DNA of 63,999 bases, the filler included, from Olpidium bornovanus S191 (Eukaryota > Fungi > Olpidiomycota): NCBI GenBank assembly GCA_017911155.1. It is 32 parts of 32 records of this genome, joined end to end, with 100 filler letters (N's around TTAATTAATTAA, not from the genome) between each part and the next. Parts side by side here need not be neighbours in the genome. Positions count along the whole stretch, not along the records: positions 47,623 to 49,011 come from JAEFCI010009997.1; 31 more parts are not named here. One strand, 5' to 3'. Position numbers and translations under genes: made by a program. Below are positions 3,049 through 50,311 of this stretch, piece by piece (position 1 is the stretch's first letter; every line of letters begins with the position of its first letter). The notes below the pieces were generated by a model that saw nothing but the letters and a program-made list of their open reading frames with translations, did no database searches and was not told where the DNA came from.

Positions 3049-4227
3049 TTCCCCCTGTGGCGCAAACAAGCCCCGAGAACGAAGAGAGGCAGACGAAGAC
3101 GGATAGAGATTGACTGCGGAGTTGGAACGGGCGCCCGCCGATGCCGATGCTTTTGCGGGATGAACTCGGGCGGCCCGCATCCGCCAGATTTCCGCCTCGC
3201 GGCTGATTTGAGAGGGACCTGGTGGTGGGAAAACTGACGGCAAGTCGATGGAGGAGCACCGCCAGCTCGAGGAGATCGTGATGAGAGCGGCGCACCACTT
3301 CCCAGCGGAGCACCAGGTTTCCCCCCGCCCCGCACCATTTTGATTCCTTGCCCCCCCCTCCCACGCGCTCCCTGTATTCCAGGCCAGGAGAAATATCCCC
3401 AGCGGGCAACGACGTGGCCGCTGCGCGCTCGCGGAGGGGAAAACTCGGGATGTTTTGCGAGCAAGGCCGCCTTGAGCTGCTCTCATTTCTGCTTTAACAC
3501 TTCCCGGATCGAGCACGTCGTTTGTCCATCTGGTCGTCCGGCGCATCCCTGGGATTGGAGCACCGCAAGAAACTTTCGCGTTCTTTTCTCTTATATTGTG
3601 TGAATTTTGTGGGAGTTACGGGAAAAAATAGGAAGAGGGAAGGAGGAATATATCTGTGGTCACGTGACTGATTTATCCTCCCTCTTGCAGGGACTATGTA
3701 ACTTATATGGGAACTGGATTGGGAATAAATAGTGCCGGCAAATCAAAGGATAAATTGAGACTCAGGGTGTGACGTTAATGACTCCATGTAACAGAAGTAG
3801 GTAAAACGAGGTAGGTCAGAGAAAAGAAGAAAATGAGATAAGGAAAGGGTCTCATAAATCTTATCAAACAGGTTTATTCACCGGCGACTCGAGGCCGCGC
3901 GGACANNNNNNNNNNNNNNNNNNNNNNNNNNNNNNNNNNNNNNNNNNNNTTAATTAATTAANNNNNNNNNNNNNNNNNNNNNNNNNNNNNNNNNNNNNNN
4001 NNNNNCATCAGGTCCTTTTTATACTGCAGGGTAATAGTAAACTTACAGGGGTGAACAAGGGGCAGATGCGCACGGTGTAGCTGCGCCTCCCCCTTTATTC
4101 TATTCTACCCCTTTATTCCTTACACCGCCCGCCCTGCCCCGCCCCGCCCCCACTCCGCCGGCCGCCCCTCGCCTCCCTTTCCGCGAAGCTAGCTTACGCG
4201 GTAGACGGGGGAAGAAAAGAAAGCGAC

Positions 4228-6696: not shown

Positions 6697-6974
6697 CTTG
6701 GGCGGCCGGAAGAGCGGCACAACCAGGAAGACTCGGTAACTCGAATTTGAGAAAGCCGGAGTGTGGCAAACCAAAACCCGGATAAAGTCGACGCCTGCAG
6801 AGCGGGATGGGAGTGGGCGCAGTCCATGCCCTCTCGCTGCCCTCTGGCGACCGCCATCGTGCTTTGTATTTTTCAAGCATATGTTCCGCACACATAGTGC
6901 CCTTATCACCGTCTTGTACTGAAGGTCTTCTCACACTGACTGCCACCTTTGCCGCTTAACCTTGCCGCAGTACA

Positions 6975-7365
6975 TCCGACAACTCGTTCGACTTCGAAGT
7001 CGTCTCCCGCTGCGTCGATAGGGTCGGGTCGGGAGACGGCTCGTGGGACCGGGATCTCGGCGGGGTTACGGTAGGGCCGGAGGACGCTGGTGTGGAAGAC
7101 GCGGTGCAACCGCACTCCCGTCGGCAGGTCTAACCGGTAGTTGTCGTTCGCCAGTACCTCCTCGACCCGGTAAGGGCCGAGGTAGCGGGCCCGGTACTTG
7201 GCGGCCAGTGTCATATTCCAGAGATCGATCCCGCTGCGGTCGACCATCACGGAGTCCCCGCGTCAAAAGGCCTGCTCTCGACGCGGTCGGTTGTATTGCT
7301 TGGCCTGGGCGTCCTGCGCGGCCAAGATGTTGTTACGTGCCTGGGCGACGAGCGTCTTCATTCGG
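6975..7365 (-). mobile_element. Ty3/gypsy (chromovirus-type) integrase C-terminus and start of chromodomain, degenerate
   Basis: ARNNILAAQDAQAKQYN..F*RGDSVMV..KYRARYLGPYRV..YRLDLP..LHRVFHTSVLRPY..DFEVERVV. In-frame TGA at 7263-7265; chromodomain is cut off. Confidence 0.9.
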
Positions 7366-23434: not shown

Positions 23435-23713
23435 TTTTCTTTTTGCTCGCGCTGTGGCCGCGGGTGTTCACCTCGGCGTTCGTTACTATGATGCATGTCG
23501 GGTGCGTTTGTTCCCCCAACACCCCCCCCACCACCTCCGCGTGCATTCCGCGCGTCACGTGACTCGAGGTCCCGGCGTGATCTCTCCGTCCAATGCGGAG
23601 GAGGAGGAGGGAANNNNNNNNNNNNNNNNNNNNNNNNNNNNNNNNNNNNNNNNNNNNTTAATTAATTAANNNNNNNNNNNNNNNNNNNNNNNNNNNNNNN
23701 NNNNNNNNNNNNN

Positions 23714-47316: not shown

Positions 47317-47679
47317 CGAGGGACATCATGACACTACTTTGCAAATGTTACTGGGATGCGCCCAGAACTTGGCGACACCCGACCGCGTGGGGAAAAAAAC
47401 GCCTGTGGTTTCCATAATAAAAATAAAATTGGCGGCAGTCGAAAAAAAAGGAAGAAAATAAATCGTACGCTTGCGGCCGGCGGCCGGGGGCCATAATCCA
47501 AAAAAAAAAAAAAAAAAAAAAANNNNNNNNNNNNNNNNNNNNNNNNNNNNNNNNNNNNNNNNNNNNTTAATTAATTAANNNNNNNNNNNNNNNNNNNNNN
47601 NNNNNNNNNNNNNNNNNNNNNNGTCATCACGTGCTTTGCGAGTTCCGCCTTCAACCGCGCAGATTGCTGCCAATTGTAA

Positions 47680-47722
47680 GTCACGTGACCAGAGTATTCG
47701 TGCGCGCACGAAAACTTTTTGT
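47680..47722. repeat. Palindromic element copy 1 (in AEP intron 3)
   Basis: GTCACGTGAC at 47680-47689 and TTCGTGCGCGCACGAA at 47697-47712. Confidence 0.95.
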
Positions 47723-47752
47723 AACGGTACGGAATGGTGCATGAACCGTTAC

Positions 47753-48588
47753 CTGCATGAACGCTCTTGGGTCGTGGGGCCTCGCGTCTCGCATTGCGCT
47801 GCGGAGGAGGGTATCCTGGACGAAAAACTCCGGCGGGATCGCCGGAAACTTCTCCCGGTATCTGAAAAGGTACCCGACGAAGAGGAAGGCGACTGCAAAC
47901 CCGTGCACTTTAAGAGTCGCCACACAGAGATCAAAAACTTTAACGTGGTAGGATGCCTTGATCGCATCGGGATCAAGGCTTTCCTCGACGCAGACGCGGT
48001 CTCGGGTGATCCGTGCTGCCGGATAACTGGAAAACGGGTGCGTAAGCGCAGAGGACAGGACCCTGCGAAGCGGGTTTGAAGCACGTACTCGTCCCATTCT
48101 ATCATCTCATCCAGGAACTAGACGAAGGCGTCAACAAGGGCCGAAATGGCCCTTGACGTGCGCTCAGCGTGGGCGCGTCTTGCGGTACTGTCGGTGCGGC
48201 AAGTGTCATGGGCATGGCGCGTCACGTGACAAAAAATTTTCGTGCGCGCACGAAAACTTTTTTGTGTCATGGGCATGGCACGATGCGTCCGCGTACCGTG
48301 ACGTCCTTACCTTTCCGTGTAGTACCATTCCAGGTCCATGACGAACGGCACCACGTGGGTATCAGTTCCCCGATCTGGTTCCACCAATTGCGCAAGTACT
48401 GCGCGACTTGCGCCGGTGTGCCGACAAGGAAGGAGCGAAATTCCCGACTGCCCCCTTCGTCCTCCTTCCGTGAAACCCTCTGCCAGACGTAAACGTCGCG
48501 TTCCGCCTCGCCCGTGACAGGTTCACGTTCGCGCCTCTGAGCCGCGTGGGCCTCACGCCAGTGCAAGTCGTCCGAACTCCTCTGCCAT
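47753..48588 (-). pseudogene. PrimPol-like archaeo-eukaryotic primase (AEP) gene, N-terminal 3 exons, disrupted
   Basis: Exon 1 to 48311 (DVYVW..RSFLVGT..; PFVMDLEWY = motif I DxE at 48328-48336). Exon 2 48187-48089 (ISALVDAFV*FLDEM). Exon 3 48026-47753 (KASYHV = motif II SxH at 47945-47953). Splice phases are consistent; exon 1 has frameshifts; TAG at 48118-48120. Confidence 0.75.
48221..48282. repeat. Palindromic element copy 2 (in AEP intron 1)
   Basis: GTCACGTGAC at 48221-48230; perfect 20-bp TTTTCGTGCGCGCACGAAAA at 48237-48256; flanked by a direct repeat of GTCATGGGCATGGC. Confidence 0.95.
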
Positions 48589-48649
48589 GTCTGAGCTGTC
48601 CTTGTTCTTCAAACCCGCAACACCCGGGCCGGGGCGGGCCGCGCCAGTG

Positions 48650-48657
48650 CTTTTATA
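48650..48657 (-). promoter_or_regulatory. TATA box (TATAAAAG) of the AEP gene
   Basis: Consensus TATAAAAG about 62 nt upstream of the ATG at 48588. Confidence 0.6.
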
Positions 48658-48671
48658 CCCCGGGGCGCGTT

Positions 48672-48722
48672 ATCCTGACAAAAGGTTTTCGTGCGCGCAC
48701 GAAAACTTTTTGTGAGGATTGC
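48672..48722. repeat. Palindromic element copy 3 (upstream of the AEP TATA box)
   Basis: Perfect 22-bp GTTTTCGTGCGCGCACGAAAAC at 48685-48706 inside a 48-bp inverted repeat with 22 of 24 pairs matching. Confidence 0.95.
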
Positions 48723-49189
48723 ATGGCACGGCGAGGTCTCATGGGAGTCCTAGAGACGTACAAGCGGAGGCAGTGTGATCGACATGTCCGTACCTTTGTC
48801 TATCCCGCGCGTCTTTTAAAAGTATTAGCATGACCTGGCTAGCGACTCAGGTATTTAAAAATGAAAACCTTATACGCGTCCATGCTCCGACATGGTGCAA
48901 CGCCATTCACGCGAGACCTACTCTGAGGCCAGGATGGCAGTAGGCGTAGAAGCTGCGGCTGTGCTTTTCTCCTTGACGTTATTATTTGCCTTGATTTTTT
49001 GTGTTAACTTANNNNNNNNNNNNNNNNNNNNNNNNNNNNNNNNNNNNNNNNNNNNTTAATTAATTAANNNNNNNNNNNNNNNNNNNNNNNNNNNNNNNNN
49101 NNNNNNNNNNNACATGCGGATCTATGCAAAGGGGGTACCGCGCTGTCGGTACGTGCTCGGTTCAACCACGTTTGCTAATCTATGGCTGC

Positions 49190-50311
49190 GTGTGGTGGGG
49201 CCCGAAGTCGAGCGAGCTTTGGAAGAGCTGTATGCTCTTGAGGCGATCGAGAGAAATGGCGGACTGTCGGCTCTCGGCCGAGTGATGGCCGAATTTCCCA
49301 TTGACCCGACATTCGGGAAAACCCTCATCAAGTCCCAGGTACGTGATGTTTGCTCGCCTCTTCTCGAGCGCCCTTGGTCACTGCTGCGGCTTTGCGCAAA
49401 TGCAGGCTGGGCAGCATGCGAGATATCCGCATTCACCGCGATCGGTTCCCATTAGGAACTCGGCTGTACCTCAGAGGTCATCGACGTGATCGCACTTCTC
49501 TCGGTCGATTCTGTGTTCTACATGCCGAACGATCGGCGCGACGAGGCGGCGGAAGCGCGCCGGAAGTTCGTGGACGCCGCCGGCGATCACCTTACCGTGC
49601 TCTCGGTCCTTCGGGCCTACCAGCAGGTCCGAGGGGAGGGGCGGTGGTGCTGCGACAACTTTGTCAACATCCGGAACATGAAGCACGCCCTGGTAGGTAA
49701 CATCCCAAAAGCGGTTTTTCGAAGCGTCGGCGAGTTTGCACGCGTTCTTTAGATATCTTGCCATGACAGTTGTTTCTGTCGCCTCCGGATTTTATAGGAT
49801 ATCCGCAAACAGCTCGCACAGCTGTGCGTCCGGCGGAAGATCGACCCGACCAGCAGCTGCGGGCATGATTCGGATCTGGTTCTCAAGGCTTTCCTCGCCG
49901 GCTTCTTCCAGCACACCGCCCTCCTACAACCAGATTCTACCTACCGTAGTGTGGTCGGCGGGCGCACGGGGAGCGTGCACCCGACGAGCGTGCTGTTCGG
50001 GAAGAAGGTGGCCGCCATCATGTATACCGAGATCGTGAGTGTCATACCGACGAGCGTTTTTCTTCTTTGCATCGCAGAGTTCCGGACCTCGGTGGAAAGG
50101 CAGAAACCGGGATGTTTTTCTGGTGGAGATATCAGTGTTGCGATATCTGTCCTGACCTCGAATTGCCCGCCCGCTTGTCCTTATCATTTTCAAAAAAAAA
50201 AAACCAACCGCGGAACAGGTGCTCACTACGAAGCAATACGTTCGAGGGGTGAGCGCGATCCAGAGCTCATGGCTGCCGGCGGCGGCGCCGAACTATTTTG
50301 GAAACGTTTGA
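49190..50311 (+). CDS. DEAH-box RNA helicase C-terminus (HA2 + OB fold; DHX33/Dhr2-like)
   Basis: ALEELYAL..LGRVMAEFPIDP..GKTLI..GDHLTVL..DIRKQL..AFLAGFF..VHPTSVLF..YTEI|VLTTKQYVRGVSAI..W; stop at 50309-50311. Confidence 0.9.

Follow-up and report, generated by a model that had tools for sequence, protein, structure and literature searches.

Among the closest described systems is that of herpes simplex, whose helicase UL9 recognises a hairpin origin as well as inverted boxes (PMC12543377); the hr units of baculoviruses are 64-bp repeats with a 24-bp palindrome, to which both origin and enhancer roles are ascribed (PMC4535591) and which bind IE-1 (PMC6669502). Giant viruses integrate in the genomes of zoosporic fungi, where isolated viral genes can reach host-like GC content and intron density (PMC13533422). 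The DNA analysed here (the window, 63,999 nucleotides from Olpidium bornovanus S191, assembly GCA_017911155.1) consists of 32 short, unrelated contigs with N-padded six-frame-stop spacers between them, many of the contigs ending in homopolymer runs, so that neighbours are unlinked and no synteny can be read over the spacers. A single contig of 1,389 bp (47623-49011), with a GC content of 55.7 %, close to that of the other contigs, carries all three copies of a palindrome. This candidate cis-element is real, non-random and clustered locally in a broken primase-helicase gene of virus-like type, and it is known from this one short contig. The unusual feature is that the candidate lies within introns predicted to have been gained.

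Other contigs carry intron-bearing eukaryotic genes (pieces of CBS-domain, Na/H exchanger, choline kinase and M41 peptidase genes, the last nearest to YME1) and retrotransposon pieces, a gene set that suggests a fungal host; of eight pieces scanned, six gave Pfam matches. The retrotransposon pieces, at 314-955 and 6909-7262, comprise a reverse transcriptase (RVT_1) and a Tf2-like SH3/integrase C-terminus. At 49112-50250, inspection by eye suggested a DEAH-box RNA helicase gene represented by its C-terminal portion; its three introns, each some 100-190 nt long, are free of the palindrome.

Three copies of a palindromic unit

Copy 1 is a perfect palindrome of 16 bp (47697-47712) in a wider unit at about 47680-47730, copy 2 is one of 20 bp (48237-48256, unit at about 48216-48282), and copy 3 is one of 22 bp (48685-48706, unit at about 48664-48730) set in a 48-bp hairpin (48672-48719). 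The original prediction had described perfect palindromes of these lengths at a spacing of roughly 450-540 bp, which was confirmed by measured spacings of 542 and 449 bp; its hairpin of up to 48 bp is real (91.7 %), and the roughly 70 bp that copies 2 and 3 were said to share were recovered as 68 aligned bp (82 %). The statement that the palindrome occurs nowhere else also held, in that the 24-bp core (47697-47720 in copy 1), which is identical in all three copies, has no match at up to six mismatches elsewhere in the window, a scope of 61 kb of unrelated contig pieces only. The window contains 27 perfect palindromes of at least 12 bp and four of at least 16 bp, three of the latter being copies 1 to 3 and the fourth a poly-T/poly-A run. 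Chance is excluded as their source because an exact 24-mer pair has an expectation of 3e-5 and three points placed at random share a span of 1,010 bp with p=8e-4; the test on the bare 12-mer is weaker (three matches at up to one mismatch against a shuffle mean of 0.37, with three reached in 2 of 100 shuffles). Single-strand folding gave z-scores of -0.84, -2.48 and -5.21 for copies 1, 2 and 3, so that unusually good folding is confined to copies 2 and 3, and copy 1 forms no unusual hairpin.

Scans for the palindrome returned no match in viral contigs and none in prokaryote genomes. Twelve metagenome matches were rejected as chance: each is a lone 19-mer in unrelated surroundings, several represent one locus, and the family gene described below was absent from their loci. 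Rfam yielded four weak matches only, each far under its gathering score.

The three units are copies of one dyad-symmetric sequence of 50-70 bp. Read from the centre outward, the six half-arms share their first 8 bases, continue with an A tract and then a T tract, and end in an outer arm that is degenerate; the polarity of the three copies relative to the gene is identical (a chance of 1 in 4). In each of copies 1 and 2, one of the two outer arms is made by the same 10-bp palindrome of E-box type (47680-47689, overlapping the likely branch region of intron 3, and 48221-48230). This 10-mer is also found at 3659-3668 and 23554-23563, there without the palindrome, and may thus be a common host promoter motif. 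Copy 2 is surrounded by 19-bp direct repeats (48203-48221 and 48264-48282, one mismatch, 61-bp period); no tandem array of the unit was found, apart from this 19-bp partial second unit at copy 2.

Between copies 2 and 3, none of the 24 core columns differs against 11 of 45 outside (p=0.006, counted after one gap was shifted to the end of the T run), and between copies 1 and 2 the core is unchanged against 7 differing columns of 30 outside (p=0.013); both tests are post hoc, since the core was defined through its conservation. The outer arms of copy 3 have five complementary bases in common that are absent from the other four half-arms, which suggests that they changed in concert, that is, that arm-to-arm conversion occurs. 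A core left unchanged in spite of such conversion fits a constraint on sequence and not on structure alone. An invariant core amid flanks in which about one quarter of the columns differ is likely to be a sequence-specific protein-binding site.

A broken gene of a probable AEP and UL9-like helicase family

The gene lies on the minus strand and is truncated by the left end of the contig. A profile made from the eight relatives that cover the region orders four window pieces along this strand, with a strong match for exon 3 (E=4e-16) and E=0.004, 0.03 and 0.94 for the other three. Exon 1 (48311-48590) gave weak HMM matches that are colinear with the family and ends in the motif A region (DLE), its end aligning with the family's motif A (DxE) column at a weak score; it carries a frame change near 48355 and a further lesion near its start. 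Exon 2 (48089-48187) has an in-frame TAG at 48120-48118. Exon 3 (47753-48026) contains AEP motif B (SxH, here SYH), and the start of a predicted exon 4 (47623-47666, compared by eye with the alignment) is cut by the contig end before motif C, the position of which, where relatives carry a conserved D, falls past that end. The same family profile found no further pieces of the gene in the window, the helicase half included, and Pfam gave no match to the four pieces.

The pieces are separated by three predicted GT-AG introns on the same strand. Intron 1 (48188-48310, 123 nt) holds copy 2, whose centre is 2.5 nt off the intron midpoint; intron 2 (48027-48088, 62 nt) bridges a frame change and has no palindrome; and intron 3 (47667-47752, 86 nt) holds copy 1, centred 5 nt off the midpoint, with a 3' junction that rests on splice signals and a short by-eye protein match only. 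A 152-bp contig of public run X1, which may not be an independent run, spans intron 1 and both of its junctions with one difference; the one other match in the run, 34 bp long and situated on a 6.8-kb host contig, was put down to chance. In intron 3, the 5' end, donor included, can form an 8-bp hairpin (47721-47764), and the last part of exon 3 contributes nine bases that recur immediately after the donor boundary.

The introns look gained because the relatives are continuous ORFs, from which the intron-free state of those relatives is itself deduced; the comparison supports the prediction that three introns were gained, two of them holding the palindrome. By eye, each of the three junctions in 47667-48310 leaves about 2-5 residues more than the relatives have, a surplus that would fit intron gain by insertion. 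The original prediction had placed all copies in non-coding sequence, and for copies 1 and 2 this is now backed by protein colinearity around the predicted introns.

For copy 3, its placement just upstream of a TATA box is borne out by a consensus site (TATAWAWR) at 48650-48657 on the minus strand, one of 8 such sites in 61 kb, but the copy may instead lie in a fourth intron (48650-48761, minus strand), with a donor GTACGT at 48761, the same hexamer as the intron 2 donor, and an acceptor at 48675 or 48650. Either arrangement requires one lesion, and the 43-64 residues that relatives have ahead of the first conserved motif fit both alike. The promoter is the somewhat more probable setting, because of the TATA box and a candidate ATG at 48588. 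Upstream of copy 3, the minus strand of 48745-48835 has a donor (48793), an acceptor (48750) and a branch-like motif near 48828, splice-like signals that suggest an upstream or untranslated exon; the likeness of the donor at 48793 to that of intron 1 was uninformative (p=0.61).

An exhaustive protein search with exon 3 gave one match, P0001 (E=6e-7, 43 % identity over 69 aa), which led to nine further proteins and a total of 10 relatives; with exon 3 alone, a word-indexed protein search retained none of 42 candidates, and the ESM Atlas returned nothing. Four relatives from metagenomes (P0007-P0010) are continuous ORFs of 1,419-1,453 aa, each a singleton cluster, that combine a predicted AEP domain, a Cys/His cluster and a predicted UL9-like helicase. 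P0009 has an additional Cys-rich insertion in the helicase, and P0007 sits on a 32-kb contig. Herpes_ori_bp (Pfam) was matched by two of these four and by the fragment P0006, although the match is limited to positions 51-197 of the 820 in the profile. RVKNL, the motif through which UL9 recognises DNA, occurs in none of the four, whether as an exact or a relaxed pattern. No Pfam AEP match was obtained among the 10 proteins, and a PDB sequence search with the family alignment gave nothing significant. Residues 40-350 of P0001 resemble AEP_C962R clusters, which are mostly viral proteins (ESM features, score 0.97), and a low-confidence predicted model of P0001 (pLDDT 45) retrieved human PrimPol first from the PDB (E=1e-3) and viral primases and origin-binding proteins first from BFVD (viral primase, E=1.5e-4). 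The loci of the relatives were sought in viral contigs, prokaryote genomes and plasmids, and none was confirmed there.

By homology the gene appears to belong to a family fusing a PrimPol/NCLDV-type AEP primase with a UL9-like SF2 helicase. Since the helicase half is absent from the contig, the fusion in this copy is deduced from the relatives. The AEP call of the original prediction holds, and is extended by intact relatives that join the primase to a probable UL9-like origin-binding helicase. No report on an AEP-UL9-like fusion family in fungi, and none on origin-like palindromes in introns, was found in the literature covered, which consisted largely of the main texts of open-access papers.

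The palindromes had further been described as better kept than the reading frame. This is suggestive only: one nonsense codon in about 215 codons implies about 4 % decay; at that rate, the chance that all 72 core bases stay unchanged is p~0.06, and counting two stops gives p=0.003. The divergence of the flanks is far above 4 %, so that the copies probably arose, and were probably constrained, while the gene still worked.

Proposed origin or operator sites and competing explanations

The reading favoured here, at a probability of about 0.40, is that the units are candidate origin or auto-operator sites of the element's own primase-helicase, an element-specific cis signal as the original prediction had suggested, and the element would then be an apparently undescribed virus-like or plasmid-like integrated replicon. 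It is favoured because copied, non-coding dyad units resemble an hr and because the relatives appear to carry a helicase of the OriS-binding type. The course of events proposed starts from the unit as it is found, repeated, with an invariant core and with every copy outside the predicted coding pieces, and from the assignment of the gene by homology to the AEP and UL9-like SF2 helicase fusions. The family would have been ancestrally intron-free, with the three introns gained by the copy in this genome, and the unit would have been copied at least twice, surviving only where splicing removes it from the mRNA. A protein dimer may have occupied the two inverted half-sites, with the flanking A/T tracts easing melting or nucleosome loss, and would thereby have placed the primase at an origin or repressed its own gene, the present copy of which is now broken by a nonsense codon and a frame change. 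Against this reading stand the GC-rich dyad centre, unlike the AT-rich spacer of OriS, the helicase half missing from the contig, the short Herpes_ori_bp match and the lack of RVKNL in the four full-length relatives. A likeness to OriS Box 2 at one mismatch was uninformative, as the window has 73 such sites.

A bolder and quite improbable extension is that the origin palindrome is itself mobile, invading its own replication gene while splice signals turn the insertions into introns, in undescribed fungal-nuclear replicons with a primase and an origin-binding helicase. Under this extension, the SCB-like half-sites may preserve the DNA target of a viral lineage ancestral to the fungal SBF.

The same features have been set against three other explanations. 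The unit may be a copied enhancer cassette for the host G1/S factors SBF/MBF or E2F, joined by a bHLH protein on the E-box, or alternatively for a KilA-N relative of SBF encoded by a virus. Sites in the promoter and introns would then tie expression of the element's replication gene to S phase; this is possible but doubtful. The centre of the palindrome contains the CGCG core of MCB, all five CACGAAAA sites of the window fall in the three copies, the E-box-type 10-mer adjoins copies 1 and 2, and copy 3 is directly upstream of the consensus TATA box. Each half-site agrees in 7 of 8 bases with the SBF site of CLN2, and in as many with the E2F site (PMC4862756), yet the exact CLN2 site is absent from the window, the E2F 8-mer occurs six times elsewhere in it and never at the palindromes, and an identity extending over 24-68 bp exceeds what factors of the SBF/E2F type need. 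Enhancer and origin are compatible functions, because hrs perform both. That the unit is what remains of a symmetric introner-like element or a tiny hairpin transposon, inserted into the gene so as either to make introns 1 and 3 (and possibly the fourth) or to land in them, was part of the original prediction and is now unlikely, having failed locally for want of a consistent target-site duplication (scattered 3-5-bp coincidences occur at differing offsets), of shared splice-site ends and of a unit in intron 2. Its appeal lies in introns that look gained in a family of continuous ORFs, in integrated viral elements that are populated by introners (PMC12166617), and in the match of introns 1 and 3 (blastn E=8e-12 over 42 nt, under E<1e-5), which passes the screen applied to mirusvirus introners in PMC12768974. 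Both palindromes also lie near intron midpoints, as in the symmetric sister introns of Hypoxylon, likewise without target duplications (PMC8469720), although an intron of only 86 nt leaves a unit of this size little room to lie off-centre. A weak likeness joins the 5' flanks of introns 1 and 3 (p=0.044 in one of nine tests), but the similarity ends before the splice sites (p=0.09-0.99 for the 3' flanks, p=0.35 and 0.95 for outer symmetry), conservation is highest at the centre and not at the ends, and the other 31 contigs, several with intron-bearing genes, contain no copy. The donor end of intron 1 also resembles the intron 3 branch region read in reverse complement, a likeness that was uninformative (p=0.19).

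The gene being broken, the copies could also be local duplicates, without function, of a palindrome that arose by chance, their symmetry and likeness being maintained through hairpin repair and gene conversion. Local duplication is indeed active, as the 19-bp direct repeat at copy 2 and the 9-bp duplication at the junction of exon 3 and intron 3 indicate; copy 3 has the signs of arm-to-arm conversion noted above, and with one nonsense codon counted neutral decay leaves p~0.06 for the unchanged core. Conversion should, however, fix new symmetric core variants as often as it erases them, whereas the core is identical in three of three copies and about one quarter of the flank columns differ. This explanation is the most improbable of those considered.

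If the core is a docking site of the primase-helicase as favoured above, it would provide a defined substrate for AEP-UL9-like fusions of about 1,400 aa that lack the RVKNL motif, and would point to a virus-like replicon residing in fungal nuclei. With palindromes of origin or enhancer type placed in introns of recent gain, intron gain would be tied to the replicon's own cis signals, and a mobile origin would make replication origins a source of new introns. Binding by SBF-type factors instead would show a viral replication gene wired into the fungal G1/S programme, and would bear on the viral origin of SBF proposed in PMC4862756.

Comparison with known systems

The baculovirus hrs are alike in having repeated units of 60-70 bp with a central palindrome of 24-30 bp, non-coding and belonging to a DNA replicon, but they form arrays of 3-8 units, whereas single units in predicted spliceosomal introns are found here and no baculovirus genes were seen; because there are no arrays, the units are not an hr. 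Herpes simplex OriS and UL9 share inverted boxes able to form a hairpin (perfect dyads here), and the relatives have a probable helicase of Herpes_ori_bp type; they differ in an AT-rich spacer, where the present units have a GC-rich centre with the A/T tracts outside, and in a helicase that is here predicted to be fused to a primase. With that GC-rich centre, and with RVKNL absent from four of four relatives, the units are not OriS. The SBF (SCB), MBF (MCB) and E2F elements differ from a long perfect dyad that has been copied as a block, with two of its copies intronic. The Hypoxylon sister introns and fungal introner-like elements, as described in PMC8469720, resemble the locus in their short introns and in a near-central palindrome common to the introns, but in those cases the splice sites are taken in by the symmetry and similarity, and the introns occupy unrelated genes, whereas here only the central 40-50 bp are alike and the known copies lie in one gene. 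Among AEP primases (AEP_C962R, the 'replication origin-binding protein' of Mimiviridae and human PrimPol), the likeness is in motifs A and B and in the feature similarity and tentative fold similarity of P0001, and in comparison with the NCLDV/herpes-clade AEP primases the relatives form a separate small family, of which the copy described here is broken and has three predicted introns.
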